A stretch of DNA of 38,925 nt from an uncultured Candidatus Saccharibacteria bacterium (GTDB taxonomy: Bacteria > Patescibacteriota > Minisyncoccia > 2-02-FULL-40-12). Made by a program: the position numbers and the translations under genes. The DNA lies in the NCBI GenBank assembly GCA_964361105.1, contig CAYHZG010000002.1, positions 1 through 38,925 on the forward strand, read 5' to 3'. This document shows positions 8,718 through 31,606 of this stretch, one piece after another. Numbering within the stretch: the stretch's first letter is position 1; every line of letters begins with the position of its first letter. Below the pieces are notes generated by a model, which saw only the letters and a program-made list of their open reading frames with translations, did no database searches and was not told the DNA's origin.

Positions 8718-10205
8718 ATGATTACGGCCCCAAAAGAAACGGACTTGGAAAAAAAACTGAAAGAAATGCGGCGACGAGAGCTTAAAGAAAGGGGTATTGA
8801 ACCAAGACCTCCTGGCCCGTCTTCTCAAGAAAAAACCTCAACCAAAGAAACAAAATTGGGAATAATAAAACTTGAGGCTAGCAAATTAAATCAATTTGAA
8901 AAAGAAATTAAGAATCTGACTGACCTTAAAAATAAATTTTCGAAAATAGCCACTACCGAAATACTCGAAGTCCTTTTCGCCGGGACTTTATCTAGCCGGG
9001 CTTCGGATATCCACTTTGAACCAGAAGAAGAAGGGGTTAGATTAAGACTCAGGATAGATGGCGTCCTTCAGGATATCTTTAATCTTGAGAAAAAGGACTA
9101 CCCCTCAGTTTTAAACCGGATTAAACTAATGGCCGGGCTCAAGATTAATGTCCATGATGCACCCCAAGACGGACGATTTACCTTAAAAACGGAAAAGGCA
9201 ATGGAGACCCGGCTACGCAACGGAGACCCGGCTACGCACGGGTCCCTCTCCAAGCCAGGTCCCTCTCCAAACGATATTGAAGTCAGGGTTTCGGCCTTGC
9301 CCGGAGCTTTTGGCGAGAGCCTTGTGATGCGGCTACTTGACCCGAGAACTATAAAAAGAGGTTTGGAAGAGCTTGGGTTAAGAAAAGACCTTTTGGAAGA
9401 AATTGAAAAACAGCTTAAAAAAACAACTGGAGCAATTTTAACTACCGGCCCAACTGGTTCGGGAAAAACTACTACCCTTTACGCTTTTGTAAATTTCGTC
9501 AATAAACCAGGAGTAAAAATCATAACCATCGAAGACCCGATTGAATACCATATTCAAGGCATATCTCAAACCCAGGTTAAACCGGAAAAGGGCTATAGTT
9601 TCGCTAATGGTTTAAGATCTATAGTCAGACAAGATCCGGACGCGATCCTGATCGGCGAAATCAGGGACTCGGAAACAGCCGAAATAGCCATGCATGCAGC
9701 TTTAACCGGCCACCTCGTCTTTTCTACAATGCATACCAATGATGCCGCCGGAGTAATCCCTCGCCTGATTGATATCGGCACCAAACCTCAGATTATCGCC
9801 CCGGCCATAAATTTAGCCATGGCCCAGAGACTAGTAAGAAAACTCTGTCAGAAATGCAAGAAAAAAGTCAGGGCCACACCTGAAGAATTAAAAAAAATAA
9901 AAGTGGTCTTTAAAAATCTGCCTCAAAAAGTCAAAGAACCAAGAGTGACTGACGAAGTTAAGATTTTTGAAGCAGGAGAATGCAACCAATGCAACTTCAC
10001 CGGCTATCAGGACAGAATCGGCATATTTGAAGCATTTGTAATTGACGAGGAGTTAGAGAAACTTATTCTCAAGTCTCCGGCCATAAGCGAAGTCAGGGAC
10101 TTAGCCATAAAAAAGGGTATGGTTACTTTGATTCAAGATGCTTACTTAAAAATTTTGGAGGGAATAACTGATTTTAAAGAAGTGGAAAGAGTTTTGGGCG
10201 AGTAA
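8718..10205 (+). CDS. pilB: Type II/IV secretion / type IV pilus assembly ATPase (GspE/PilB family)
   Basis: 495 aa with Walker A 'GPTGSGKTTT', an Asp box, Walker B 'ILIGEIRD', a His box 'TGHLVFSTMHTND' and a tetracysteine 'CQKC...CNQC'. It carries a 24-codon GC-rich insertion at 9199-9270. Confidence 0.88.
   Translation: MITAPKETDLEKKLKEMRRRELKERGIEPRPPGPSSQEKTSTKETKLGIIKLEASKLNQFEKEIKNLTDLKNKFSKIATTEILEVLFAGTLSSRASDIHFEPEEEGVRLRLRIDGVLQDIFNLEKKDYPSVLNRIKLMAGLKINVHDAPQDGRFTLKTEKAMETRLRNGDPATHGSLSKPGPSPNDIEVRVSALPGAFGESLVMRLLDPRTIKRGLEELGLRKDLLEEIEKQLKKTTGAILTTGPTGSGKTTTLYAFVNFVNKPGVKIITIEDPIEYHIQGISQTQVKPEKGYSFANGLRSIVRQDPDAILIGEIRDSETAEIAMHAALTGHLVFSTMHTNDAAGVIPRLIDIGTKPQIIAPAINLAMAQRLVRKLCQKCKKKVRATPEELKKIKVVFKNLPQKVKEPRVTDEVKIFEAGECNQCNFTGYQDRIGIFEAFVIDEELEKLILKSPAISEVRDLAIKKGMVTLIQDAYLKILEGITDFKEVERVLGE
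9199..9270 (+). repeat. Second copy of the 72-nt GC-rich palindromic element, in-frame in the PilB-like gene
   Basis: Near-identical to 4939-5010 but read one frame over. Here it encodes METRLRNGDPATHGSLSKPGPSPN; in gpmI it encodes NGDPAPQRRPGFARVPLQAGSLSK. Confidence 0.9.
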
Positions 10206-10612
10206 GTCCAGTCGCCCCTATGACTAGCCATGGCTCCCAATAGGGTGCGGACAAAGTCCTCGATCTTGGGAAATGCGAGGGAAGAATAACCCCTAGGAAT
10301 AGCCCAGAAGACGTTAAACGTCTCCAAACTATCCGTAGATTAATTATTCCGGTGTTGGTCTATGGTTTTAAATCAAAGACCAGCTGCCCGCACCCTAGTA
10401 GGAACCACAGTCTGGTCGCCCACAGGAGCAAATCAATTTAGCATTAAGATTTTGAGGCAAATTCTAGGAGCGAGAAATGAGTGTATATAGAATACGTGAT
10501 TTCCGAGCGACAAAGAATTTGGCCAAAATCTTAGATGCCCCCTGAGGGAAGCAAAATTTATTATCCTGTGGACAACCAGACAAAAAACCCGTATTTTGGG
10601 TTTAAATAAATT
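10206..10612 (-). ncRNA. Candidate structured non-coding RNA of unknown class (about 400 nt; ends uncertain)
   Basis: 510-bp gene-free gap with locally elevated GC. Nested long-range helices: 10228-10250/10388-10410, 10410-10426/10565-10581 and 10445-10465/10514-10533. Further hairpins at 10258-10280, 10296-10350, 10307-10325, 10354-10384 and 10536-10553. Most non-Watson-Crick positions are G-U only in the minus-strand reading. A consensus promoter reads into it on the minus strand. Confidence 0.55.
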
Positions 10613-10620
10613 ACATTATA

Positions 10621-10649
10621 ATTATATATTGATAGGATAAAACTGTCAA
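10621..10649 (-). promoter_or_regulatory. Perfect consensus sigma70 promoter on the minus strand
   Basis: Minus strand reads TTGACA (10649-10644), then gttttatcctatcaata (17 nt), then TATAAT (10626-10621). It points into the structured intergenic region, away from ruvB. Confidence 0.7.
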
Positions 10650-10715
10650 GCGAAAATGTAAAGCTTATTTTCTATGGATTAATCAATTATAAACTGTTGA
10701 TTAGCTGTTTATAGA

Positions 10716-11753
10716 TTGCTTTCTATGCCAAACCAGCTATCAGAAAAAAAGAACCCAAAAAGTTTGACTAGAACTCTGCCAGAAGACCAGGTTTTAGATC
10801 AAACCCTAAGGCCGGTCACTTTTAGAGAATTCATTGGTCAAGAAAAAGTAAAAGAAAATCTAAAAGTGATGATTGAAGCAGCCAGAGGAAGAAAAGAGCC
10901 CCTGGAACATATTTTAATCTATGGCCCGTCAGGGCTTGGCAAAACAACTTTGGCCCACATTATTGCTAAAGAATGCGCCGCCAATATAAAAATTACTTCT
11001 GGTGCCGCCTTGGAAAAAGCCGGAGACATTGCCGCCATTTTAACTGGTCTTCAAGATGGAGACGTATTCTTCATTGATGAAGTCCACCGACTCAATAAAC
11101 TAATTGAAGAGGTTCTTTATCCAGCGATGGAGGGCTTTAAATTGGATATTATTATCGGCAAAGGCGCCTCAGCCAAAACAATTCAGATAAATCTTCCCCG
11201 CTTTACCCTCGTGGCCGCGACTACCAGAATCGCCCTCCTTTCTTCTCCTTTCCGATCAAGATTCGGGGTAAATTACCGGCTTGATTTTTATAGCCGTGAA
11301 AATATTGAAAAAATAATTGAGCGGTCGGCCAAAATACTAAATATAAAAATGGAAAGGGGGACCGAAAAAATACTTGCTCAGGCCAGCCGTTACACTCCCA
11401 GAATCGCTAATAAGCTTCTTAAAAGAACCCGAGACCTTGCCCAGGTCAGAGAGGAAAAACTGATTAGCCCAAAAGTGATAAACGAAACCTTATCAATGCT
11501 GGATATTGACGAACTTGGTCTTGAGGCCACAGACCGGAAAATTCTCCGGCTAATCATAGAAAACTTTAATGGCGGGCCAGTCGGGATAAAAACCATTGCC
11601 GCTTCTTTAGCCGAAGAGGAAGAAACAATAGAAGACGTCTTTGAGCCATATCTTATGCAGATTGGCTTTTTAGCCAGGACATCCAAAGGCAGAATTGCGA
11701 CCAAACTTGCTTTTGACCATCTTGGCATTAAAAACCAGACCCAAATTATATGA
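10716..11753 (+). CDS. ruvB: Holliday junction branch migration helicase RuvB
   Basis: Contains Walker A 'GPSGLGKTTLA', Walker B 'VFFIDEVHRL' and the RuvB C-terminal winged helix. The start is TTG 10716 or, more likely, ATG 10725. Confidence 0.92.
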   Translation: MLSMPNQLSEKKNPKSLTRTLPEDQVLDQTLRPVTFREFIGQEKVKENLKVMIEAARGRKEPLEHILIYGPSGLGKTTLAHIIAKECAANIKITSGAALEKAGDIAAILTGLQDGDVFFIDEVHRLNKLIEEVLYPAMEGFKLDIIIGKGASAKTIQINLPRFTLVAATTRIALLSSPFRSRFGVNYRLDFYSRENIEKIIERSAKILNIKMERGTEKILAQASRYTPRIANKLLKRTRDLAQVREEKLISPKVINETLSMLDIDELGLEATDRKILRLIIENFNGGPVGIKTIAASLAEEEETIEDVFEPYLMQIGFLARTSKGRIATKLAFDHLGIKNQTQII

Positions 11754-11995
11754 GTGGCTTGATAACGAACCTGCCTTTGGTCATCTATATCCTTTTCCTA
11801 GCGGGTTATCTGATTAACGCCTTATTCGTTGTTTATCATCTCTTGAAATTCGGATTGGATTATAAAACTAAACTTTTAGCTTTTATCTTTTCTGTCGGTT
11901 TGATTTTATTAATAATTGTTAATTTCCGCCTGTTTTCTAAAATTGAATGGGCTGAACTTATCTATGAATATCTTTCCTTCCCAAAAATCATATGA
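11750..11995 (+). CDS. Small hypothetical membrane protein (2-3 TM)
   Basis: 81-aa hydrophobic ORF that starts in an ATGA overlap with the ruvB stop. Confidence 0.55.
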   Translation: MSGLITNLPLVIYILFLAGYLINALFVVYHLLKFGLDYKTKLLAFIFSVGLILLIIVNFRLFSKIEWAELIYEYLSFPKII

Positions 11996-18364: not shown

Positions 18365-19465
18365 TTATGTTTTTAGGGGCATAATCAAATAAGTAAAATT
18401 TAGGTCTTGATCTTTTGGTCTTAAAGTTATTGGCGCCCCTTCGCCAGCGTATTCAAAAACAATATCTTCAGAAGAGATATTCTTTAGGCCGTCTACCAGA
18501 TAATTATAGTTTAGCAAAACTTCAAATGGTTCATTAATTTGAATATTGGGATTATTTTTGACTCTCGAGTTAAACTCGCCTCGGTCAGAATTTTTAGAAA
18601 ACACGACCGCCTCTTTTTTGTCAATCCTCAAACCGATGTCGTTTATATTGCTTGAAAACAGTCCGGCTAATCTTATGTTATTTTGAAGGTCTTCTTTTTT
18701 GAATAAAACCTGGGAAACTGATTTTGTGGGGATAACTTTTTGATAATCTGGATACCGGCCCTCAACCAAACGGGAAATAATTTCAAAATCATCTGAAGAA
18801 AACTGAATCTGATTTTCCTCTATGCTGATTAAAGTATCTTTTTCATAGTCAGAAAAGATTCTTATTAGCTCGGCCACAGTATTTCTTGGAATTATTACCG
18901 AGATTTGTTTGTTGCAATTTATGTCGATTATTTTTTCAGTCAGACGGAAACTATCAGTAGAAGCAAGATAAATTTTCGTTTTATTAAAACTAATAAAAAC
19001 ACCACCGAGTTCTGGTCTGGTTTGGGAAACAGAAATTGAATCAAATACAGAAGCCAAGGCGTTTTTTAAAACCCGACTCGGTAAGGTGACCACCGGATCC
19101 TTTTTTAATTTAGGAATTAGTGGGAAATCTTTAGGGTCGAGGCAAATAAATTTTGTCTTAAAATTAATACTTTGAATATTTAAAATATTATCCTTTAAAA
19201 GGAGCTCTATTTTGTCATCTTTGATATTAGAAACAAAATCGGAAAATATTTTTGCCGGTATGGCTACCTTACCTTCATTCTCGGTGGTAGCTTTAAGATA
19301 GTAATTTATTCCCAATTCTAAATTAGTAGTTGAAAGATTGACTTGATTATTTTTAAAAGTCATTAAAATAGCATTTAAAACCGGCAGGTTTAGATTTTTA
19401 CCGACAATATTTTTAACCGTGTTTAAACCTTGCTGAAGATTTCTAGTTATTATTGTAATTTTCAT
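18365..19465 (-). CDS. dnaN: DNA polymerase III beta sliding clamp
   Basis: 366 aa with a three-domain beta-clamp pattern, directly downstream of dnaA. Confidence 0.9.
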   Translation of the reverse strand: MKITIITRNLQQGLNTVKNIVGKNLNLPVLNAILMTFKNNQVNLSTTNLELGINYYLKATTENEGKVAIPAKIFSDFVSNIKDDKIELLLKDNILNIQSINFKTKFICLDPKDFPLIPKLKKDPVVTLPSRVLKNALASVFDSISVSQTRPELGGVFISFNKTKIYLASTDSFRLTEKIIDINCNKQISVIIPRNTVAELIRIFSDYEKDTLISIEENQIQFSSDDFEIISRLVEGRYPDYQKVIPTKSVSQVLFKKEDLQNNIRLAGLFSSNINDIGLRIDKKEAVVFSKNSDRGEFNSRVKNNPNIQINEPFEVLLNYNYLVDGLKNISSEDIVFEYAGEGAPITLRPKDQDLNFTYLIMPLKT

Positions 19466-19680
19466 AATATAAATTTAATAAAGATAATAATAAGCTTTGT
19501 GGAAAAGTAATTAAATCAAATGTTTATCCATATAATACCTAAATAAATCTATTTTAATTACTAATTGATAAACTATTGATAATTTTGTTATAAGGTCTTA
19601 AGTTTTAAACTTATTTTAAAACTTTCAAGTTTAAATCTTCAAAATAACAAACTCAAATCAACATATCTATCTACAACTTG
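19466..19680. promoter_or_regulatory. AT-rich dnaA-dnaN intergenic region with DnaA-box-like 9-mers
   Basis: TGTGGAAAA (19498-19506) and TTATCCATA (19524-19532) are each one mismatch from TGTGGATAA/TTATCCACA. The spacer is extremely AT-rich. Confidence 0.5.
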
Positions 19681-21051
19681 TCAGGCCTTATTATAAATCC
19701 TTTCCCTGATTAAATTTATTTCTTGTTTCATATTTTCATTATTTTCCACTTCTTCAACAATTTTCCGATAGGCATGAATCACTGTTGAGTGATCTTTTCC
19801 TCCCAAACGACTACCAATATCCGGAAAAGATGCCTTAGTATCTTCCCTTAAAAGATACATTGCAATCTGGCGTGGCTTGACTAAAAATGTTTTCCTGCTC
19901 TTTTTAAGAAGTTCATTTAAAGTAAGGCCATAAAAATCGCAAACAACTTTTACTATTGCCTGGGCGTTTGTTTTTCGGTAACTGGCCTGGACATAGGCCT
20001 TTAAGAGTTTTTCTACTTCTTTTGGAGTTGGCTCTCGGCCGGTCAAGTCGCTTACCGCAATAATTCTATTTAAAGCACCTTCAAGCTCTCTTATATTTTT
20101 CTGAATATTAGTAGCGATGCATTCTAAGACTTCGTCTGGCAAAGAGATCGGCTTATTCTTTACCTTTGTTTTCAGAATAGCCAGACGAGTTTCATAATCA
20201 GGAATATTAATGTCAGCGATCATTCCTCCTTCAAATCTCGATTTTAACCTTTCTTCAATGGCCGACAAGGCCTTTGGCGGCCGGTCGGAAGATAGAATAA
20301 TCTGTTTATTCCGGTTATATAAATTATTAAAAGTGGCGAAAAATATGTTTTGAGTAGTTTCCTTGGCCGCCAAAAACTGAATATCATCAACGATTAAGAC
20401 GTCTCTTTGGGCATATTTTGTTTTAACTTCTTCTATGGTTTTGTTCTTTATTCCTTCAATGAGTTCAGAAACCATTTTTTCAGCCGGCAAGTAGATGATT
20501 TTCTTATCGGGATTATCCTTTAATATTTTATTGGCAATGCCTTGAAGTAAATGAGTTTTACCTAAACCCACTCCTCCATAAATAAAAAGAGGGTTATAAA
20601 TCTTGCCCAAGCTTTTAACTACAGCCATACTGGCCGCATAGGCCAGTTCATTACTTGGGCCAACAACAAAACCATCAAGAGTGTACTTTCTGTTCAGGTT
20701 TGTTTTGGGGTCAATGTCGGTGTCTGAGTTTATTTCTTGGATTTGTTCAAGCTGTATCTCCCTGGTTAGAATCTTTGAGTCCGATGTTTTTACAAAAGGG
20801 TTACCAACAACGTAATTAATTTCTCTAATATCGTTATCGGCCTGCTTTAAGCATTGAAAAATCACTTTATTAAATTTATTTTGGATCCATTCTTTAACAA
20901 AGCCATTAGGAACACTGATTACAACCTGTCCATTTTCTTTGGAAATAATTTTAGTGTCTTTAAACCAGGTAACAAAGCTGGCTTTGCTCAAAGACATCTC
21001 CATTTCACCCAAAACACCTTTCCAAATATCTTCATTAGTTAGAGTGGTCAT
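19681..21051 (-). CDS. dnaA: Chromosomal replication initiator DnaA
   Basis: 456 aa with Walker A 'GGVGLGKTHLL', 'LIVDDIQFL' and a C-terminal DNA-binding domain ('GGKDHSTVIHAYRKI'). Confidence 0.95.
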   Translation of the reverse strand: MTTLTNEDIWKGVLGEMEMSLSKASFVTWFKDTKIISKENGQVVISVPNGFVKEWIQNKFNKVIFQCLKQADNDIREINYVVGNPFVKTSDSKILTREIQLEQIQEINSDTDIDPKTNLNRKYTLDGFVVGPSNELAYAASMAVVKSLGKIYNPLFIYGGVGLGKTHLLQGIANKILKDNPDKKIIYLPAEKMVSELIEGIKNKTIEEVKTKYAQRDVLIVDDIQFLAAKETTQNIFFATFNNLYNRNKQIILSSDRPPKALSAIEERLKSRFEGGMIADINIPDYETRLAILKTKVKNKPISLPDEVLECIATNIQKNIRELEGALNRIIAVSDLTGREPTPKEVEKLLKAYVQASYRKTNAQAIVKVVCDFYGLTLNELLKKSRKTFLVKPRQIAMYLLREDTKASFPDIGSRLGGKDHSTVIHAYRKIVEEVENNENMKQEINLIRERIYNKA

Positions 21052-21204
21052 GTTTTTTCTTAATTCTATTTTATAGATACGTCGATTAACAATTTATTTA
21101 AGTTGAGAATTTGTTGATAATAAGTTGATTAGCATAATTATTATATTCTCGATTGTCAAACCTAACAATTGACCAGTTTTAAGAAAAAGGTTAATTTAAA
21201 AAGC
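21052..21204. promoter_or_regulatory. Candidate oriC / divergent promoter region between dnaA and rpmH
   Basis: AT-rich spacer between divergently oriented dnaA and rpmH. TGTTGATAA (21112-21120) is one mismatch from a DnaA box. Gene orientation switches here. Confidence 0.5.
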
Positions 21205-21351
21205 ATGACCAGAGCAAAAGCATTAACCTTTCATCCATCAAAAAAGAAAAAAGCAAGAAAGCACGGGTTTAGAAAAAGAATCGAGACCCAGGCTGGAAAA
21301 AAAGTTTTACTGAGAAGAAGAAGAAAGGGCAGAAAAAGAATAATCCCCTAG
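21205..21351 (+). CDS. rpmH: 50S ribosomal protein L34
   Basis: '[39 protein letters not shown]'. ATG 21205 gives the usual length of about 48 aa; the track start TTG 21169 is probably too long. Confidence 0.9.
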
Positions 21352-21358
21352 GTTAAAG

Positions 21359-21694
21359 ATGTCTTTACCAAGAAAATATTGTTTGTCCAGCAAATCTGAG
21401 ATTGAAGGAGTTTTTAAAAAGGGAAAGTATCTGAACTCTGAGTTGTTTTCCATAAAATTTTCCCCAAATAGTACTAATTTCAGCAGATTGGCAGTAATCG
21501 TCGGCAAAAAGAGCTCAAAGAAATCGGTTTTAAGGAATAGAATCAAAAGATTGGTGAGTGAAATTATACGGTTGAATTACTCAAGGATTAAACCCGGTTA
21601 TAATATCGTTTTAATAGTTAAATCTCGGGCCATAAATGAGGAATACAGAGATTTAAAAGAAGCTTTAGTTAAAAGATTGAGTGAAATTGGCTAA
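21359..21694 (+). CDS. rnpA: Ribonuclease P protein component
   Basis: 111-aa basic protein in the conserved position after rpmH, containing 'NRIKRLVSEIIR'. Confidence 0.88.
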   Translation: MSLPRKYCLSSKSEIEGVFKKGKYLNSELFSIKFSPNSTNFSRLAVIVGKKSSKKSVLRNRIKRLVSEIIRLNYSRIKPGYNIVLIVKSRAINEEYRDLKEALVKRLSEIG

Positions 21695-21921
21695 TGAAAA
21701 CGTTAACTATTGGTCTGATAAAACTATATCAAAGTACTTTTTCGCCTAATCACGGCCTTGAATTTTTTGGTTTTTTGACCGGTTGCCGGTTTTACCCTTC
21801 CTGTTCCGAGTATTCAATTCAGGCGATAAATAAGCACGGCCTGATAAGGGGCCTTTTTAAATCAATCGTAAGGATTTTAAAGTGCAATCCATGGTCAAGA
21901 GGCGGAGTTGATTTACCATGA
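21694..21921 (+). CDS. yidD: Membrane protein insertion efficiency factor YidD
   Basis: 75 aa with 'CRFYPSCSEYSIQAINKHG' and 'LKCNPWSRGGVD'. TGA stop at 21919-21921. Confidence 0.92.
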   Translation: MKTLTIGLIKLYQSTFSPNHGLEFFGFLTGCRFYPSCSEYSIQAINKHGLIRGLFKSIVRILKCNPWSRGGVDLP

Positions 21922-22063
21922 CCCAGTAGTAGAAATTCGGCAGGTTTTTAGCCATGTCGTTGTAATCTACTGGGAGCAGATTAATAATAATTTTTGTTAA
22001 TTTTTGGCAATATCTAGTTTTATAAAACCAAACTAAGACATATGCCGAATTTTCACTACTGGG
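21922..22063 (-). mobile_element. 142-bp ORF-less (MITE-like) derivative of the GIY-YIG cassette, inserted in the yidD/yidC ATGA junction
   Basis: TIRs CCCAGTAGTAGAAATTCGGCA (21922-21942) and TGCCGAATTTTCACTACTGGG (22043-22063) are 19/21 complementary. They have the same two end variants (GTAGTAGAAATTCG and GTAGTGAAAATTCG) as 1440-1753, but inverted. Direct ATGA at 21918-21921 and 22064-22067. Confidence 0.75.
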
Positions 22064-22858
22064 ATGACTGGATTATTTAACTCAATTTTATACATTCCGT
22101 TTTTCAATCTTCTTGTTTTTTTGTATAACACCGTTGCTTTTCACGATTTTGGCTTGGCCATAATCTTACTGACTCTGGTTATTAGGTTAGTTCTTAGCCC
22201 CTTGTCTATTAAGACATTTAAATCACAAAAGATTTTAAGCGAGCTTCAACCAAAGATTAAAGAAATTCAAGAGAAATTCAAAAATGATCCTCAAAAACAA
22301 ACCCAGCAGATTATGGAAACATATAAACAGTACAAGGCCAACCCGTTTTCGGGATGCCTGCCCTTATTAATTCAACTCCCGATTTTAATAGCTCTTTACC
22401 AGGTCTCACTCGCTGGTTTTGAAAAAAATTCACTCTCGGCTTTATACAGCTTTGTTAAGAATCCCGAGTTTTTAAATCAGACATCTTTAGGGTTTATTGA
22501 TTTGACTAAAAGAAGTGTTTTTCTTTCGGTATTTGCCGGCGTTAGTCAATTTTTACAAACTAAGCTAAGCCTCAATTTCCAGAAGAATCCCGCCCTTCAA
22601 AAATCTCCCAAAACGACAGCGATTCCGCAACGAGCCGTAAGCGGCTCGGCGGAACCTTCGACGAGCAATCCCATCGCTTCAATGAACCAACAAATGTTGT
22701 ATTTTTTGCCCATTATCACTATAATTATTTCGATGAGTTTTCCAGCTGGTCTGCCGCTTTATTGGATAGCCACAACTTTGTTTTCGGTTCTAGAACAGGT
22801 ATACATTAATAAGACATATGCAAAACCAAATCGAAAACCTGATTTCTCAAACCGTTAA
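22064..22858 (+). CDS. yidC: Membrane protein insertase YidC (short, Gram-positive-like form)
   Basis: 264 aa with 'GCLPLLIQLPILIALY' and 'PAGLPLYWIATTLFSVLEQ'. Confidence 0.92.
   Translation: MTGLFNSILYIPFFNLLVFLYNTVAFHDFGLAIILLTLVIRLVLSPLSIKTFKSQKILSELQPKIKEIQEKFKNDPQKQTQQIMETYKQYKANPFSGCLPLLIQLPILIALYQVSLAGFEKNSLSALYSFVKNPEFLNQTSLGFIDLTKRSVFLSVFAGVSQFLQTKLSLNFQKNPALQKSPKTTAIPQRAVSGSAEPSTSNPIASMNQQMLYFLPIITIIISMSFPAGLPLYWIATTLFSVLEQVYINKTYAKPNRKPDFSNR
22623..22654. repeat. GC-rich hairpin inside the yidC coding sequence
   Basis: TTCCGC-aa-CGAGCCG-TAAG-CGGCTCG-GCGGAA forms a 13-bp interrupted stem. It encodes part of the hydrophilic stretch 'IPQRAVSGSAEPS'. Confidence 0.7.
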
Positions 22859-23291
22859 AGACCTTTTTCAAAGAGCCGGTTTTAATTTCAATGATTTGAA
22901 TATAGAAAAAAATGGGGATGGGCAAGAAGAGGCATTTATAGTCAAAATCCAGTCGGACGATGATTGTTCTCTGTTACTGAGTGACAAAGGCAGGAGTTTG
23001 AGAGCTTTTGAGTATATTGCTAGAATTCTGGCTGTAAAAGAGTCAAACCAGAAAATCAGTTTGATTATTGATCTAAATAATTTTTTAGAGAAGAGAAACA
23101 GCCGAATCTCCGAATTAGCCAGACTAGTAGCTAAAAAGGTCCAAACTACCCAAAAGTCATTTGCTTTAAGGCCAATGTCAGCCTATGAAAGGCGTTTAGT
23201 TCATCTCGAACTGGCTACTTGGCCAGACATTAGAACTGAAAGCATTGGCGAAGAACCAAAACGACGAGTAGTAATAAAACCAGGTCAATAA
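22818..23291 (+). CDS. Jag/KhpB-type RNA-binding protein (KH + R3H)
   Basis: 157 aa in the conserved position after yidC, with R3H motif 'SAYERRLVHLELA'. Confidence 0.85.
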   Translation: MQNQIENLISQTVKDLFQRAGFNFNDLNIEKNGDGQEEAFIVKIQSDDDCSLLLSDKGRSLRAFEYIARILAVKESNQKISLIIDLNNFLEKRNSRISELARLVAKKVQTTQKSFALRPMSAYERRLVHLELATWPDIRTESIGEEPKRRVVIKPGQ

Positions 23292-26222: not shown

Positions 26223-28025
26223 TCACTTATTATTACTCCCTTTTTCTCTTAGCCATTCTTTTTTTGCTTCCCGAATTTCTAAAATCTGTCTTGGGTCAGA
26301 AGTAATAATTTGGTCCTCGGCGTAAGAAGCCACTACTCTAACCGCAACATGATTAGCTCCGGCAAAAAACAAACCGTGACCCACCCTTGTGCCAAGTAAG
26401 GCGATTTTTTCCGCCTCGGTCAGGTTAAATGTTTCTTTGACTGTTTCGATTGCCGCCGGACTCTGCTTCATTAAAAGCTGCAAAGCGGCGTTAGTAACAA
26501 TCGGTTTGCCATAAGGTGAGTTAATGAAATCGGGTACATCTTGGGAGATAGTGGTTAGACCGAGAAAATATTTCCTTGCTCTTTTTGCCGTATTTAATAA
26601 AAAGTTTGCCCCGGCTTCGTTTTTCAAAAGCCACCAGGCCTCATCAACCACCAGAATTCTTTTCCTTAGTTCTTTTCTCACTTTTGCCCAGAGGAAATTT
26701 AAAACCAAGTACATGGCGATTGGCTTTAATTCATCTTCCATGTCGCGAATAGAAAAAACAACTAATTGGTTATCCAAAACAACATTGGTCGGCTGGTTTA
26801 AAAAGCCGGCAAAAGTTCCTTCAGTGTATTTTTTAATCCTGATAAGTAATGATTCGGCTCCGGTCATGCCCTCCAGAACATTTCTGAAATCGCTCATTAG
26901 CGGCGGTTCCTTATTGGAAAAATCACGGTCTGGATAAATGTCTTTAATGGCATAAGTTTGAATCAGGGCTTCGTCCAGGACCGATTCTTCTTCTGGAGAA
27001 AGCTGGCCGAGCATTACTTTCATCAAGCCGGTCAAATCTAAGATATGGCTCCGGAAGACATCGCTTGTACGCTCGTCTTCACGAGGAGCGGGTAAGTCAA
27101 ACGGATTAAGATGGCTATCAGAAGCGATTGATATTTTTATGAAAGAACCGCCCAAGGTTTCGGCGACGTGCTTGTATTCATGCTCTGGGTCAATCACGAA
27201 AATTTGATTTCCGAAAAGAATGGAGCGTAAAATTTCCAGTTTTACGGCATAGCTTTTTCCGCCGCCACTAGTTCCAAAAACAACTTGATTAGCATTTTCC
27301 AAACTGAATCGGTCAAATAAAATGAGGGAATTATTATGCAGGTTTATGCCGTAAAGAATCCCCTGGTCTTGAGTCAGGTCATAAGAAACAAATGGAAAGC
27401 TTGAGGAAATCGGTTCAGTGTTCAAAGGAGAGTTAATTCCCAATTCGTCCTTGCCAAGCGGTAAAGCAGTCGTAAACCCTTCCTTCATTCTGAAAGTCGC
27501 CGGTTTGACCACGACTAATTGCGACTCCAAATTGTTTCTTATTCTTTTTTCAATTTCATCCAGTTCTTTCAGATCTTTGCCTAAAATGGTCAGATAAAGG
27601 CCGAATCTGAAAAACCGGTCGGTCCCAAGCTGGAGCTTGTCTCTTAAGGTTTCAATGTCTGAAATAGCGGTTTCCAAAACCGGGTCTCGGACCTTGCCTT
27701 TTTCTTGTTCCTCAATTGCCTGGGCCTGGAGCCGAGCCAGCCGGTCCCTTAATTTTCTTAAGATATTAGCTGTGTCTTCGGGATGAATGTAAAAAGAGAT
27801 ATTCAGTTCTTGGTCAAGGTTGATTATTGGAGAAAACCAACTTGAATTCAGATAGCGGGGATAAGAAGAAATAAATAAAGTCCGAGTGAACTTTTCACTG
27901 ATTTGAAGATAGTTTGAAGAAACATTTACCGCCGAAGGAGCCAGAATTTCGTCTATTTTTTGTCCCCTGCCCTCCGTAGCTTCAGCGAAGGAGGGTTCTT
28001 TTAATTTTCTTTTAAACAAAGCCAT
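26223..28025 (-). CDS. virB4: VirB4/TrsE/ConE-type T4SS ATPase, middle and ATPase portions
   Basis: 600 aa with Walker A 'GTSGGGKSY' and Walker B 'ILVVDEAWWLL'. The pre-ATPase block 'LAPSAVNVSSNYLQISEKFTRTLFISSYPRYLNSSWFSPIINL' is typical of Gram-positive VirB4 homologues. Confidence 0.8.
   Translation of the reverse strand: MALFKRKLKEPSFAEATEGRGQKIDEILAPSAVNVSSNYLQISEKFTRTLFISSYPRYLNSSWFSPIINLDQELNISFYIHPEDTANILRKLRDRLARLQAQAIEEQEKGKVRDPVLETAISDIETLRDKLQLGTDRFFRFGLYLTILGKDLKELDEIEKRIRNNLESQLVVVKPATFRMKEGFTTALPLGKDELGINSPLNTEPISSSFPFVSYDLTQDQGILYGINLHNNSLILFDRFSLENANQVVFGTSGGGKSYAVKLEILRSILFGNQIFVIDPEHEYKHVAETLGGSFIKISIASDSHLNPFDLPAPREDERTSDVFRSHILDLTGLMKVMLGQLSPEEESVLDEALIQTYAIKDIYPDRDFSNKEPPLMSDFRNVLEGMTGAESLLIRIKKYTEGTFAGFLNQPTNVVLDNQLVVFSIRDMEDELKPIAMYLVLNFLWAKVRKELRKRILVVDEAWWLLKNEAGANFLLNTAKRARKYFLGLTTISQDVPDFINSPYGKPIVTNAALQLLMKQSPAAIETVKETFNLTEAEKIALLGTRVGHGLFFAGANHVAVRVVASYAEDQIITSDPRQILEIREAKKEWLREKGSNNK
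27964..27996. repeat. GC-rich palindrome in codons 11-22 of the VirB4 ATPase ORF
   Basis: Stem CCCTCC (27970-27975) pairs with GGAGGG (27990-27995). It encodes 'PSFAEATEGRGQ'. It shares CCTCCTTCGCTRAARCT and GGGCAGG with the tRNA spacer element at 2386-2448. Confidence 0.6.
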
Positions 28026-28657
28026 TATTGTAGTTTCATTATCCCTTCAACCGCCTCTGGATTATAAAATCGGTAGTAAAGATTGATTAATTCATCTTCT
28101 TCTAAAACTTTGGCTCCGAGGCCTAATCCGGCCAAATTTTCATAGACCAAATTAACCCTTTGGTTTAATTGGGCCTTATATGAACTAAATTCTTCAGGAG
28201 TTAGTTTTTTAATCGTTTCAGATGGTTTGAAAATGCTTTTGAATATTTCTTTGACCCCTCCTTTAGTTCGGGGACCGATATAGAAGGGGATAATCACAAA
28301 AAAATCCTTAGCCATAATATTGGCTAATTGGGTCAGTTCTTTTACAAACTTTGAATATTCAACGGCCTGAATTCTCATCAATTCGTTCTGTTGGTTTTCG
28401 ATCAACTCATCAATCATAGCTAGATAGCTATTAATGTTTAGTTTTCGTGACATCACCATAATTTCCAAAGAAAAATCCAAAGCATTCAGGAAATCCCGAA
28501 AGCCCTGCAAAATCGCCGTTTGTTCATCCTGGGACTTTAGTTCAAAGTTAATTGAACCGATTCGAATCACCTGGCGCAAAGAGCCGTCTTTTAAAATCAA
28601 AACCTCGTCTCTGACTTCTTGAATTTCAACAAATTGTTTAGTTGATACCTCGGCCAT
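28025..28657 (-). CDS. Protein resembling the detached N-terminal domain of Gram-positive VirB4
   Basis: 210 aa. 'LILKDGSLRQVIRIGSINFELKSQDEQTAILQGFRDFLNALDFSLEIMV' follows the pattern I recall for the N-terminus of Tn916 Orf16/ConE-type VirB4. TAATG overlaps at both ends. Confidence 0.6.
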   Translation of the reverse strand: MAEVSTKQFVEIQEVRDEVLILKDGSLRQVIRIGSINFELKSQDEQTAILQGFRDFLNALDFSLEIMVMSRKLNINSYLAMIDELIENQQNELMRIQAVEYSKFVKELTQLANIMAKDFFVIIPFYIGPRTKGGVKEIFKSIFKPSETIKKLTPEEFSSYKAQLNQRVNLVYENLAGLGLGAKVLEEDELINLYYRFYNPEAVEGIMKLQ

Positions 28658-28950
28658 TAAAAGTTTTGATTGTCTTCTTTTTTGAAAAAGTATTTTTTTG
28701 GGCCAAGGGCATATCCCAACGCCTTCATTAGATATTCTATTAAACTCATCTCTTCTATTCTAAGAAAGGCCAGGGAGCCAAAAATGGCGATTACAATAAT
28801 TGAAACAAAAATTAGAAAGGGTCCGGTCAAGAATCTGAAAAGTATTAAAAGCAGACCCACGCCCATAGCCACCCAGATGAATTGTTTCCAGGTCAAGGGC
28901 CCGACTATTTTGGTTTCTGTTTCAATGAATTGAGGCACCTGGAATTTCAT
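28657..28950 (-). CDS. PrgI/VirB3-like small two-TM T4SS protein
   Basis: 97 aa. 'FQVPQFIETETKIVGPLTWKQFIWV' is followed by two TM helices and sits immediately upstream of the VirB4 ORFs. Confidence 0.65.
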   Translation of the reverse strand: MKFQVPQFIETETKIVGPLTWKQFIWVAMGVGLLLILFRFLTGPFLIFVSIIVIAIFGSLAFLRIEEMSLIEYLMKALGYALGPKKYFFKKEDNQNF

Positions 28951-29453
28951 AGTATATTTCTTAAATCAATAATGCTTTCGTCTTCAGTTGGGGGCTGGAT
29001 AGATGGTTGCGGACTCGGTTTACTTTTTACTTCTTGTTCTTTTGTTGCACCAGCAAATTTTTCAGTATGCATTTTTTTCAAGTCATCCAGAATCGGTGCA
29101 AAAAGTTCAATAACAATTAGTCCGGCAATGGTTTTAGCTTTTTGTTCATCAATACCCAATCTGTCTTTTATTGCATTAACCACGTTGCCAAGATAGAGAT
29201 CGGCAAATAATAGATCTTTGACAACTCTAGCCAATTCTTCACCCCTTTTTTCATCTAAACTATTATCGGTAATAACCCTTTTAATAAATTTAGCTGTCTC
29301 AAAATCACCAAGAAAGAGATCTTTTATATTTGGCGGCAAGTTGTTTAACTTTTCAAAAAACCCTTTATATTTAAAAGTTCCAGTTGTTCTATCACTGGAA
29401 TCAACGTAATAAGGACTATAAAGATGGTATTCTTCAAAGCTTAATTCAGACAT
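28947..29453 (-). CDS. Hypothetical soluble protein with a Pro/Ser/Gln-rich tail
   Basis: 168-aa ORF coupled to the next gene by an ATGA overlap. I recognise no motif. Confidence 0.55.
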   Translation of the reverse strand: MSELSFEEYHLYSPYYVDSSDRTTGTFKYKGFFEKLNNLPPNIKDLFLGDFETAKFIKRVITDNSLDEKRGEELARVVKDLLFADLYLGNVVNAIKDRLGIDEQKAKTIAGLIVIELFAPILDDLKKMHTEKFAGATKEQEVKSKPSPQPSIQPPTEDESIIDLRNIL

Positions 29454-29458
29454 GATGG

Positions 29459-31573
29459 TTAAAATCCAATGCGCCGCCCGCCCGTTCCCGTTCCTCTGCC
29501 TCCTCCTGGCGGCGTTCCTCCACCGGCAGGCGGAGCAAAACCAATTGGCCTCGGGCCGACTCCGCCGCCCGGCATAATACTGTCAATCACTGCTTGTTTA
29601 TCTGGATTTCTTGGTCCTACCGCATTTCTTAAATTTTGTTGTCTTTGCGGATCGGCGGCAAATACTTGTCTCAACCCTTCTCTAAATGCCGGATCTCTGT
29701 AAGTTTGTAAATCCTGATTAGCAAAGAAATCATAATTACCTCTATTAAATTCTTCTTCACTTCTGGCTCTGATTTTCGCTACCACGGCATTGAAATCGGT
29801 TGATCCAGGAGTATTGTTGATAGGAATAGTTGTCAGATTTCTTCCTCTTTGTTTTTCCTCGTTAATGTATTCAGCCCACATTGCCGTATCCACACGTTTC
29901 TTTTTTCCTTCGCCCAAAAGACCCCTTGCTTCATTTAAGCTCCGCTGACTCATAACTTCATAAGCTGCAACCAAATCATCAGTATTTTCAAACATTAATC
30001 CCGGCTCTTCTTTTTTAAGATAGTTAACGGCTTCTTGTCGAGCATTTAAAAATTCTGATCCAAGACTTGAAAAGGCCCCTCGGCCGACCGCCAAATCTCT
30101 AACTGCCTGGGCTCTGCCGACAAATCCATTAAACCTTCCTTCAACTAAAGCTTTCATGTATTCTTGGCCGATCAAAGTTCTTGAATCAAGGTTTTTAATA
30201 TGGGTCTTGGCCAGGTCTTCATTAACTAAGCCGTTTTTGGCCATTAAAATCGCTGCTGCCGCTCCTTGAGACGTTTTTAAGTTTCTGGCAAGACCAGCAA
30301 GGTCGTCTTGAATCCGGCGGCCTTCATTTAGATCTCGCCTTAGTTTTTCTTGTTCTTCTTCAATGCTTTTCTTGAACTCTCTTTGGGCTTCTAATCCCGG
30401 CGCTACTCCAAAAGGCCTCCCTAAAATTCCGGCGATTGCTTCCTCTCTTTTTCTCCTGGTTTCGGCCCCGCCAATTCGTCTTTCAGTCCCAGGAACTTTT
30501 ACCCCGGTTTCTTGGATTCCTTTCCAAATTCTTCCGATTCCGCCTGGAACCTGCCCGACATAAGGAATTGCACCAATCCAACTGTAGCCATAAACTCCCG
30601 CGCCGGAGGCAAATTTATGAGCCCAGTAAAGACCGCCAAACAAAAAGACAAGATTTATCAAAAGTAAAATGGTACTGGCAATAGTCAGAGGCCAGAAGCC
30701 GGCTAATTGTTTGTCAAATTGGGCTTGGTTGATGATTACTTGAATTCGTGAATTCCAAAATAAAACAAAATAAATAACCGCAAAGTAAAATAATGGGATA
30801 AGGGCCCATTGAATCGTGTTATGCCACCATTTTTTCCAGACCCTCTCCTTTAATGGCGGGAAGGCATAAGATATCCAGGCCAGCGGAGAAATCATGGCCA
30901 AGCCCATTAAAATCGGCAGTCTTATAAGCAATATAAGCCCTATCCAACCCAAAGCCAGAAGGATCAAAAGATATAGAATTGCCTTAAATATGGTGAATAC
31001 AAGTTGAGCCCCGGCCGTAGAAGCTTCGGATTCTGTCTCTTTGGCAAATTCTCTGGTCTGGATTTCATTTAGATACAAAGGCGCTCCAATCTTTGTTCCA
31101 ACTGTATGCGGTTCGCCCATTGCTTTTAAAAATACATTGGCCGGGATCCACAATAAATCTATGGTCCATTGGAAGATGACAAAACTGAAATTTATTAATA
31201 AGGCGGCAATAATAATTTTGGTGAGCAGTTGTTTATAGGTGTATTGAGTGGGGTAATTAAAGATGGTCGCAAAGGCGGTGATTATTAAAAGGAGGATGAA
31301 GAATAAATTTGAAAAATCCCGAAATATTCCCCAGCCTTCTTGGATGGCATCAATTTTTAAAAGCCAGTTTTGGATAGGAACTACAAAATTTATTAGATTT
31401 CCAAAGCCAACGATTAACCCTCCAAAAACAAAGTTGACCACCGTGTCAAGTAAAGCGATTACACCTTCAGAGATTTCATTACCGACAAGAGCCGGGGCAA
31501 ATTTATAAACCAGGTAGGGTATGCCTACCCATTTACCGAGAAAAATTAGAGTCGGAATTAATAATGCTGGCAT
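29459..31573 (-). CDS. VirB6/TrbL-like polytopic membrane protein with a long hydrophilic C-terminal domain and Gly/Pro tail
   Basis: 704 aa with at least 7 hydrophobic segments in the first 330 aa or so, then a charged domain of about 330 aa. It ends 'GGGVGPRPIGFAPPAGGGTPPGGGRGTGTGGRRIGF'. Confidence 0.6.
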   Translation of the reverse strand: MPALLIPTLIFLGKWVGIPYLVYKFAPALVGNEISEGVIALLDTVVNFVFGGLIVGFGNLINFVVPIQNWLLKIDAIQEGWGIFRDFSNLFFILLLIITAFATIFNYPTQYTYKQLLTKIIIAALLINFSFVIFQWTIDLLWIPANVFLKAMGEPHTVGTKIGAPLYLNEIQTREFAKETESEASTAGAQLVFTIFKAILYLLILLALGWIGLILLIRLPILMGLAMISPLAWISYAFPPLKERVWKKWWHNTIQWALIPLFYFAVIYFVLFWNSRIQVIINQAQFDKQLAGFWPLTIASTILLLINLVFLFGGLYWAHKFASGAGVYGYSWIGAIPYVGQVPGGIGRIWKGIQETGVKVPGTERRIGGAETRRKREEAIAGILGRPFGVAPGLEAQREFKKSIEEEQEKLRRDLNEGRRIQDDLAGLARNLKTSQGAAAAILMAKNGLVNEDLAKTHIKNLDSRTLIGQEYMKALVEGRFNGFVGRAQAVRDLAVGRGAFSSLGSEFLNARQEAVNYLKKEEPGLMFENTDDLVAAYEVMSQRSLNEARGLLGEGKKKRVDTAMWAEYINEEKQRGRNLTTIPINNTPGSTDFNAVVAKIRARSEEEFNRGNYDFFANQDLQTYRDPAFREGLRQVFAADPQRQQNLRNAVGPRNPDKQAVIDSIMPGGGVGPRPIGFAPPAGGGTPPGGGRGTGTGGRRIGF

Positions 31574-31606
31574 AGTTTGTAATACTGGCTAAACATTTTT
31601 AAGTGA

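Follow-up and report, generated by a model that had tools for sequence, protein, structure and literature searches.

A conserved, lineage-restricted structured RNA gene encoded opposite pilB and ruvB in Parcubacteria

What is encoded in the gap between the genes for a PilB-like ATPase and the RuvB helicase in Parcubacteria? The stretch of DNA analysed here as a whole, contig CAYHZG010000002.1 of assembly GCA_964361105.1 (38,925 nt, hereafter the window), is a Patescibacteria (candidate phyla radiation, CPR) chromosome segment with housekeeping genes. Its closest genome records are metagenome-assembled genomes (MAGs) labelled Patescibacteria, Parcubacteria, Yanofskybacteria and Sungbacteria. 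The pilB-ruvB gap of the window spans 510 bp (10206-10715). A first-pass annotation made from the letters of the window had described the gap as free of any credible open reading frame (ORF) and as the candidate source of a roughly 400-nt, two-domain RNA read from the minus strand. The first statement is correct: the only ORFs inside the gap encode 61 and 42 amino acids, no reading frame stays open over it across homologues, and the core lengths of the homologues differ by non-multiples of three. As for the second, the minus strand almost certainly carries a real, conserved structured RNA gene, which is smaller than had been proposed.

The RNA has homologues in relatives of the window. A search with nhmmer matched the second of the two proposed domains (domain 2) alone, in the pilB-ruvB gap upstream of ruvB of loci L001 and L002. 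In the three-way alignment of these loci with the window, the promoter, a small 5' hairpin and domain 2 are kept and the first domain (domain 1) is missing. A covariance model made from three sequences (R1) gives matches in L001-L005, L082-L087, L089, L095, L115, L126, L131, L142 and L209, on the strand opposite pilB and ruvB, together with a 5'-truncated match at the contig end of L081. Every fetched Parcubacteria locus with pilB-ruvB synteny is matched by R1, and by tblastn all matches sit between the two genes. Structured, covarying homologues are present at 17 further Parcubacteria loci (18 with the window), antisense to both pilB and ruvB, over a range in which identity falls from 85% to 46% for PilB and from 86% to 52% for RuvB. 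A second model (R2) was built on A6, a trimmed MAFFT alignment of 17 species made without structure. On the minus strand the window core reaches 208.4 bits (R1) and 166.7 bits (R2), whereas the plus-strand scores are 26.7 and 17.8 bits. R2 gives L126, the most distant member, 35.6 bits.

The range of the RNA is narrow. RuvB is too conserved to single out CPR loci when used as an anchor: about six of 80 RuvB-anchored loci are from CPR bacteria and five of these hold the RNA; the other ~75 served as negative controls. R2 has no credible match in ~0.85 Mb of ruvB loci from other phyla and other CPR lineages, or in ~0.7 Mb of unrelated metagenome and viral loci. Upstream of ruvB it finds nothing in Falkowbacteria, Peregrinibacteria, another Patescibacteria MAG or ~70 loci of other phyla. 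As judged from these loci, the RNA is specific to Parcubacteria that share the nusA-pilB-ruvB neighbourhood. A metagenome scan for the pattern TTGG-N(5-30)-CTRGNYYWNNCCTNGRNNNTRYTYT gave, among the matches listed, mostly chance occurrences, with L095, L115, L126, L131 and L142 being real. The TTGG pattern has 30 chance matches in viral contigs, none confirmed by R2, and blastn of the region against a phage collection gave no match. Two low-scoring matches were rejected. An R1 match in L166 (22.5 bits) is not in the syntenic setting and did not recur with R2, and an R2 match at window positions 28018-28177 (17.3 bits, E-value 0.019) falls at the junction between coding ORFs and is noise. The core is single-copy at each locus and syntenic, with no repeats in the window, the fetched loci or the viral contigs, which answers the earlier concern that the region might be a degenerate mobile inverted-repeat element.

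Covariation supports the fold and identifies the strand. At the three-sequence stage, 20 of 68 pairs were already compensatory. RNAalifold on A6 predicts the helices P1, P3 and P4, in which 33 of 47 pairs have changes on both sides with the pair kept. Standard pairs fill 97.1% of the 799 pair cells of A6 versus 81.6% in column shuffles, the covariation score is 0.571 versus 0.252, and none of 500 shuffles reaches the real alignment on any measure. In a control where the 3' partners were slid by 1-3 columns, pairing was 36-50%. All five of five helices covary in a model-fitted alignment. Across the 17 species there are 116 G·U cells and 6 A·C cells; therefore, the RNA strand is the minus strand. 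The wobble pairs conserved in P3 would be mismatches on the plus strand, and selection clearly acts on minus-strand pairing. Taken with the homologues and the strand-specific model scores, these results agree with the first-pass reading of a genuine structured non-coding RNA on the minus strand.

The core folds as a four-way junction with junction strands of 1-5 nt (Table 1). In the closing helix P1, 19 of 23 pairs are compensatory and the paired fraction of cells is 96.7%. MAFFT misaligns P2, but P2 folds in 17 of 17 sequences with differing stems, and all seven of its pairs are double-changed in the model-fitted alignment. P3 contains an invariant G10350·U10283 base pair (G·U in 17/17) and a near-invariant tandem U·G/G·U (10325-10327 with 10304-10306; U·G in 15/17 and 16/17, G·U in 17/17). 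It also has a conserved 1-nt bulge and an asymmetric internal loop, and its apex varies in length and covaries. The P4 stem shows compensatory changes from C-G to U-A and others, and its loop reads UUCCC or UUCCU in most species. Structure but not sequence is kept in P1, P2 and the P3 apex; sequence is kept too in the P3 body, the P4 loop and the P1/P2 junction GGCAAUUG. The window has the features that define the family, namely the P1-P3 architecture, the P3 motif GGARUAU...GG.U..UUGG-loop-CUGG..A.CC...UAYUCU and a minus-strand sigma-70 promoter in the pilB-ruvB slot. Possible tertiary contacts sought by eye (P4 loop with the P3 UUGG, P2 loop with P4 loop, leader U-tract with P2 loop) are not consistent in both subgroups of the family. 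The tandem U·G/G·U of P3 resembles helix IV of 5S rRNA and the other features do not. This likeness, and those of P3 and P4 to a K-turn and a T-loop, were set aside; there is no Rfam 5S match.

Table 1. Positions in the window of the RNA gene, its parts and other features
Feature	Position	Strand	Evidence or remark
Core RNA, 175 nt, four-way junction P1-P4	10232-10406	-	R1/R2 scores, covariation
P1 closing helix, 23 bp	10384-10406 (5' strand) with 10232-10254 (3' strand)	-	A6
P2 hairpin UGGUCU/AGACCA, AU-rich loop	10356-10382	-	folds per species
P3 long irregular hairpin, most conserved part	10283-10350	-	A6
P4 hairpin CCUCG/CGAGG, pyrimidine-rich loop AUUUCCCAAGAU	10258-10280	-	A6
Domain 1, 172-nt near-palindromic insertion	10410-10581	-	between leader hairpin and P1
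3' tail repeat GGGGCGACUGGAC, third motif copy (repeat family D1)	about 10205-10218	-	abuts pilB stop codon
Leader hairpin AAACCC-AAAAUAC-GGGUUU + U-run	10582-10603	-	terminator scan
Sigma-70-type promoter TTGACA (10649-10644), 17-nt spacer, TATAAT (10626-10621)	10621-10649	-	12/12 consensus
T2SSE/PilB-like ATPase gene (pilB)	8718-10205	+	Pfam
ruvB	10716-11753	+	Pfam
tRNA cluster (Pro, Gly, Arg, Lys)	2153-2519	-	ARAGORN, Rfam
dnaN	18365-19465	-	
dnaA	19681-21051	-	
rpmH	21169-21351	+	
rnpA	21359-21694	+	
yidD	21694-21921	+	
yidC	22064-22858	+	
jag/R3H gene	22818-23291	+	

The family has two subgroups. In group A, to which the window belongs, the core measures 173-177 nt, except in L082, where an insertion in the P2 loop brings it to 192 nt. 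The cores of group B (Yanofskybacteria/Sungbacteria-like) measure 163-166 nt, and their P3 apex is shorter and capped by UUCCGA-type loops. The core of L126 is 145 nt long, which gives an overall range of 145-192 nt, with 163-177 nt in most members. L126 lacks the leader hairpin and P2, retains P3, and has two different hairpins after P3 in place of P4. Its P1 begins at the predicted transcription start, is separated from P3 on the 5' side by 1 nt and runs directly into UUUUUUGUUGUUU (U6). By this layout, the minimal conserved unit is P1 plus P3, joined at a junction with two short accessory hairpins.

The two adjacent helix-closed domains described earlier are present in the window. Domain 2 is closed by an inverted repeat of 23 nt (10231-10253/10385-10407, 83%) and domain 1 by one of 18 nt (10410-10427/10564-10581, 89%), and both repeats appear in the minimum free energy (MFE) folds. 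The whole region folds far more stably than shuffled sequence, with -166.4 kcal/mol (z -9.7) on the minus strand and -138.6 kcal/mol (z -7.2) on the plus strand. The reported minus-strand bias of the G·U pairs is also real, and its source is almost entirely domain 2. Folded alone, domain 2 (10226-10412) has -87.7 kcal/mol (z -8.5) on the minus strand versus -63.4 kcal/mol (z -4.6) on the plus strand. Domain 1 (10408-10583) has -67.0 versus -63.8 kcal/mol, and such near-equal energy on both strands is expected of a palindrome at the DNA level. In locus alignments domain 1 is missing from 15 of 15 full-length relatives. The idea of a single two-domain RNA of ~400 nt is therefore not supported, since domain 2 alone is conserved and domain 1 has neither relatives nor a strand bias.

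Domain 1 is an organism-specific palindromic insertion in a linker of variable length, outside the conserved RNA. Between the leader hairpin and P1, this linker measures ~8 nt in three loci (L082, L086 and L209), 20-36 nt in several more, ~100 nt in L005 and ~190 nt in the window. The terminal inverted repeats of domain 1 are its 18-nt arms, which are 89% complementary, and there is no clear target-site duplication at its ends. No second copy occurs in the 39-kb window, any fetched locus or the viral contigs, and the arm has no match in the viral contigs. The closest relative, L081, carries a tail related to the 3' tail repeat of the window. Because the 3' end of domain 1 resembles this tail, local duplication is a plausible origin. 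The first-pass annotation had proposed that the third copy of the repeat could pair with domain 1 as an alternative. The copy is present and pairs 12/12 with the 5' arm of domain 1 (10570-10581), giving -19.2 kcal/mol versus -35.2 kcal/mol for the domain 1 stem, but a fold that uses this pairing is ~21 kcal/mol worse than the MFE.

Insertions of a similar kind occur in L082. The P2 loop of its RNA (4678-4900) holds a 23-nt insertion, UUGAUAUAUUGAUAUUUCGAUAU, to which an additional segment of the 3' tail of L082 is complementary; the window and L082 are alike in having a lineage-specific insertion complementary to the 3' tail. L082 also has ~260 nt of extra hairpin-rich DNA (4930-5210) between the RNA promoter and ruvB. 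A 9-mer, CCGAGCGAC, common to this extra DNA and to domain 1 was dropped, as the rough chance expectation is ~0.3.

Signals for independent transcription flank the core. The textbook minus-strand promoter of the earlier description agrees with the consensus at every position of both hexamers, and its position upstream of the RNA is conserved in relatives. It is the sole TTGACA-N17-TATAAT match with at most 1 mismatch in the window. Such a match turns up at least once in 28% of shuffles, so by itself the promoter carries no significance and its weight rests on conservation. TTGACA-N17-TAnAAT precedes the RNA in 16 of 17 full-length loci, the window included, and the 17th, L126, has TATATT in place of TAnAAT; the 18th, truncated at its 5' end, is outside this count. 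For the second hexamer, group A has TATAAT, often together with a doubled -35 (TTGACTTGACA), and group B has TAGAAT or TACAAT. The predicted transcription start of the window RNA is near 10614. The promoter is followed in 16 of the 17 full-length loci by a CCC...GGG leader hairpin with a U-tract like UUUUAAUUU, which is absent from L126. The stem of this hairpin has only 3-6 bp. A run of at least four U directly 3' of P1 occurs in 8 of 18 loci, so P1 can serve there as a terminator stem. The conserved promoter, leader and U-run argue for an independent, strongly transcribed gene. The region had also been called GC-rich; it is mildly so (0.419 for the region and 0.481 for the core versus a window mean of 0.390), but the promoter spacer is not (0.231).

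The RNA does not belong to a known family. A scan of the whole window with Rfam 15 at gathering thresholds returned four tRNAs only. At E-values up to 10, the window region (661 nt) and its counterparts in L004 (256 nt) and L086 (261 nt) gave unrelated noise that was different in each. This check of the window and two relatives excludes RNase P RNA, transfer-messenger RNA (tmRNA), signal recognition particle (SRP) RNA and 6S RNA as recognised by the Rfam models. For tmRNA, ARAGORN likewise finds only the four tRNAs at 2153-2519 and there is no Rfam match, and SRP RNA has no Rfam match at E-values up to 10. A riboswitch or leader was rejected since nothing is encoded downstream on the RNA strand, which in 18 of 18 loci continues into the antisense of pilB.

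RNase P RNA was weighed seriously because CPR RNase P RNAs are very divergent and miss Rfam thresholds (PMC8172020) and the genome encodes RnpA. Low thresholds still gave matches to the CPR RNase P RNAs in that study (PMC8172020). In the three members scanned here, neither RF00010 nor RF00011 has a match at E-values up to 10 on either strand. The likeness is that of a stable, housekeeping-type CPR RNA gene missed by Rfam thresholds, and the 400-nt two-domain picture would have had the size of RNase P RNA. RNase P RNA has P4 strands of the form GGAAAGUCC ... ACAGAA/GGCUUA, catalytic and specificity domains, and a length above ~270 nt. By contrast, the conserved unit here is ~175 nt in the window (145-192 nt in the family), its second domain is not conserved, and the CR-I and CR-V sequences of the P4 pseudoknot are not on the RNA strand. 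A plus-strand look-alike, AAAGUCC, is not conserved (AAAAUCC in L001, AAAACCU in L002). No RNase P RNA was detected by Rfam in the window; since rnpA is present, it must be encoded elsewhere in the genome.

The gene is a new RNA family of a familiar sort, the lineage-restricted orphan structured small RNA. The raiA motif, OLE and ROOL are RNAs of this sort, and all are in Rfam. They share with the present RNA a supported covarying fold, a range of one lineage, a stand-alone unit, no obvious regulated downstream gene and a function that cannot be deduced from context. They differ in that there is no sequence or structure match, and the present RNA is smaller than OLE and ROOL and occurs only in Parcubacteria, in one syntenic slot. 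Full-text searches of the literature on non-coding RNAs of CPR bacteria, of Parcubacteria or near ruvB found no description of this RNA, and no paper was found on lineage-specific non-coding RNAs in Parcubacteria.

What might such an RNA do? The explanation we favour, and consider probable, is that window positions 10232-10406 on the minus strand encode a structured small RNA, inherited vertically and not described before, which acts in trans with a protein bound to P3. The trans-acting, protein-binding mode taken by itself is given about an even chance. The RNA would be transcribed at a high level as an independent unit and would be stable and abundant. P1 may shield both ends from exonucleases and, where a U-run follows, may also terminate transcription. 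The leader could be a 5' stabiliser, a segment that is processed off or a leaky attenuator. The wobble pairs, bulge and asymmetric internal loop of P3 would form the recognition surface for the putative protein, and P2, P4 and domain 1 would be peripheral. Our best guess is that the RNA is a ribonucleoprotein (RNP) subunit or a decoy that sequesters a protein.

Several points weigh against this explanation. Transcription, the RNA ends, abundance and processing are all deduced from sequence, and all 18 loci sampled share a single syntenic context. Such strict synteny with pilB and ruvB might reflect a local role, in cis and not in trans. The leader hairpin with its U-tract resembles the genome's own terminators, such as AAAAUUGCCC...GGGCAAUUUUAGUUU near 2650, and efficient termination there would keep the yield of core RNA low. 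In addition, P1 of the window is not followed by a U-run.

A base-pairing regulatory small RNA is an unlikely but coherent alternative. Purine-rich ribosome-binding sites of target mRNAs would be bound through base pairing with the P4 loop and perhaps also with the AU-rich P2 loop, and the rest of the fold would be a stabilising scaffold. Consistent with this, the P4 loop keeps YCCY in every aligned species while its stem covaries. Like the genes of trans-acting small RNAs, this one carries its own promoter, and in about half of the loci P1 is followed by a U-run. The C-rich-loop small RNAs of Firmicutes, such as RsaE/RoxS, offer a comparison, as they share the pyrimidine-rich loop (UUCCC or UUCCU here), the own promoter and the U-run. 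However, the present RNA is much larger and more rigid, has one such loop and shows no detected homology to them. Its strongest conservation is in the paired P3 arm and not in the loops, L126 has other hairpins where P4 would be, and the ruvB start regions have no obvious Shine-Dalgarno sequence. To our knowledge, base-pairing small RNAs are rarely conserved in structure over such divergence.

A highly divergent 6S RNA is quite improbable. In that case P1 would imitate the downstream and P3 the upstream promoter DNA, with the junction as the bubble, and the RNA would sequester the sigma-70 RNA polymerase holoenzyme. 6S RNA (ssrS; RF00013 and relatives) is the closest analogue in size and overall shape: the lengths are similar (~165-185 nt; 163-177 nt in most members here, within the ~160-200 nt expected of 6S RNA), the two ends pair to form a long closing helix, another long, irregular helix stands across the centre, and the gene is stand-alone with a strong sigma-70 promoter. 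In the present RNA the two long helices that flank the central region have ~23 and ~26-32 bp, and the promoter is strong and consensus-like. The centre is where the two differ. That of 6S RNA is an open bubble, whereas here it is a compact, closed junction with both sides locked in the covarying hairpins P2 and P4. The 5' gap of 1 nt between P1 and P3 in L126 leaves no template strand for the product RNA. The P3 sequence is near-invariant, unlike 6S stems, which vary freely. No 6S model match was found at E-values up to 10 in three divergent members. This last result is tempered by the finding that CPR housekeeping RNAs can escape Rfam thresholds (PMC8172020). According to PMC8876501, a truncated Bacillus subtilis 6S-1 RNA with only the central bubble and two short arms still runs through the whole 6S cycle, which suggests that the bubble is the part that matters most. 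With the open bubble replaced by a closed, covarying junction and no 5' single strand in L126, 6S function is unlikely.

A cis element of the pilB-ruvB locus has an equally small probability. The antisense unit would insulate ruvB from pilB read-through by promoter collision or by RNase III cutting of duplexes between sense and antisense RNA, or the region would be a structured spacer of a pilB-ruvB mRNA. In favour of this, 18 of 18 loci have the RNA at the same place and in the same orientation between pilB and ruvB, the RNA promoter is back-to-back with a conserved extended -10-like TGGTATAAA upstream of ruvB, and the 3' strand of P1 extends to, or into, the stop codon of pilB in some loci. 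Since the nusA-pilB-ruvB-yebC-ruvC neighbourhood is syntenic as a whole across relatives, conserved position alone says little. Selection acts on pairing of the minus strand, including invariant G·U pairs that are A·C mismatches on the plus strand, and an insulator needs neither a four-way junction nor invariant internal motifs.

A further proposal is that the RNA is a lineage-specific, essential RNP component or protein decoy unique to Parcubacteria. In its boldest form, the stable four-way junction would mimic a Holliday junction and thereby titrate or guide the RuvB/RuvC recombination machinery, or the RNA would act on the pilus/DNA-uptake ATPase. The idea arises because the RNA is encoded where ruvA usually precedes ruvB and there is no ruvA anywhere within the window. 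It is doubtful, to the same degree as the 6S and cis explanations. A degenerate universal RNA (RNase P RNA, tmRNA or SRP RNA) or a mobile inverted-repeat element has the least probability of all and is largely refuted already: the divergence of CPR RNase P RNAs (PMC8172020), the encoded RnpA without an RNase P RNA detected in the window and the 18-bp terminal inverted repeats of domain 1 speak for it, but the core of 145-192 nt has no CR-I/CR-V, no ARAGORN tmRNA and no Rfam match at E-values up to 10, is single-copy and syntenic, and domain 1 has no second copy anywhere searched.

Parcubacteria are a very large uncultured group of CPR bacteria with tiny genomes, and little is known of their RNAs. 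Retention of a structurally constrained RNA with a strong promoter in one slot in otherwise stripped genomes, while PilB and RuvB diverge to about half identity (46% and 52%), suggests a function on which the cells rely. The family definition (alignments A4 and A6, models R1 and R2) is usable as it stands and gives a sequence marker for these genomes. The RNA is also a concrete target for metatranscriptomics, searches for partner proteins and structure determination.

There is also an effect on assembly and annotation, in that the gap is left unannotated and two contigs of one groundwater assembly break inside the RNA. Both are in European Nucleotide Archive (ENA) assembly ERZ1292623, which comes from wells of the Hainich aquifer: L210 (3488-3568), which is from the species of the window (PilB 100% identical), and L081 (4416-4505), from a relative (PilB 85%), end at the identical RNA sequence ...CCTCGATCTTGGGAAATGCGAGGGAAGA. 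The assembly seems to break inside the conserved RNA as often happens in rRNA and tRNA genes shared by co-occurring strains.

The surroundings of the RNA gene contain a few further features. By Pfam, the genes 5' of the region encode RNase Y, iPGM, trigger factor and NusA, and genes for a bPH protein, YebC, RuvC and TyrRS are identified as well. The spacer between the RNA promoter and ruvB (window 10655-10726; L001, L002, L082-L087) is itself conserved in group A. It holds the extended -10-like element ~30 nt before an ATG and an AACAG...AACAG direct repeat (~10692-10712). The real start of ruvB is probably this ATG at 10726 and not the TTG at 10716, and the gene seems to have no Shine-Dalgarno sequence. 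Directly 3' of ruvB is an 81-amino-acid ORF without a Pfam match (11750-11995, plus strand), which recurs with 81 amino acids in L083 and 77 in L209.

Elsewhere in the window, a small minus-strand gene (~2560-2940) precedes the tRNA cluster and ends near 2650 in a clear terminator, AAAAUUGCCC-AAAUUUUGA-GGGCAAUUUUAGUUU, which served as the yardstick for the RNA leader hairpin. Its product may be HU/IHF-like, to judge from the C-terminal sequence. A replication-origin neighbourhood lies at 18365-23291, with the RNA gene ~10 kb from dnaA. A TraG/VirB4-like ATPase gene (26223-28025, minus strand) adjoins several large ORFs without Pfam matches (29459-31573 and 31607-33247), and a further minus-strand ORF (33237-34262) has bacterial TSP3 repeats. 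Together, positions 26223-34262 of the minus strand may be a type IV secretion or surface-apparatus cluster.

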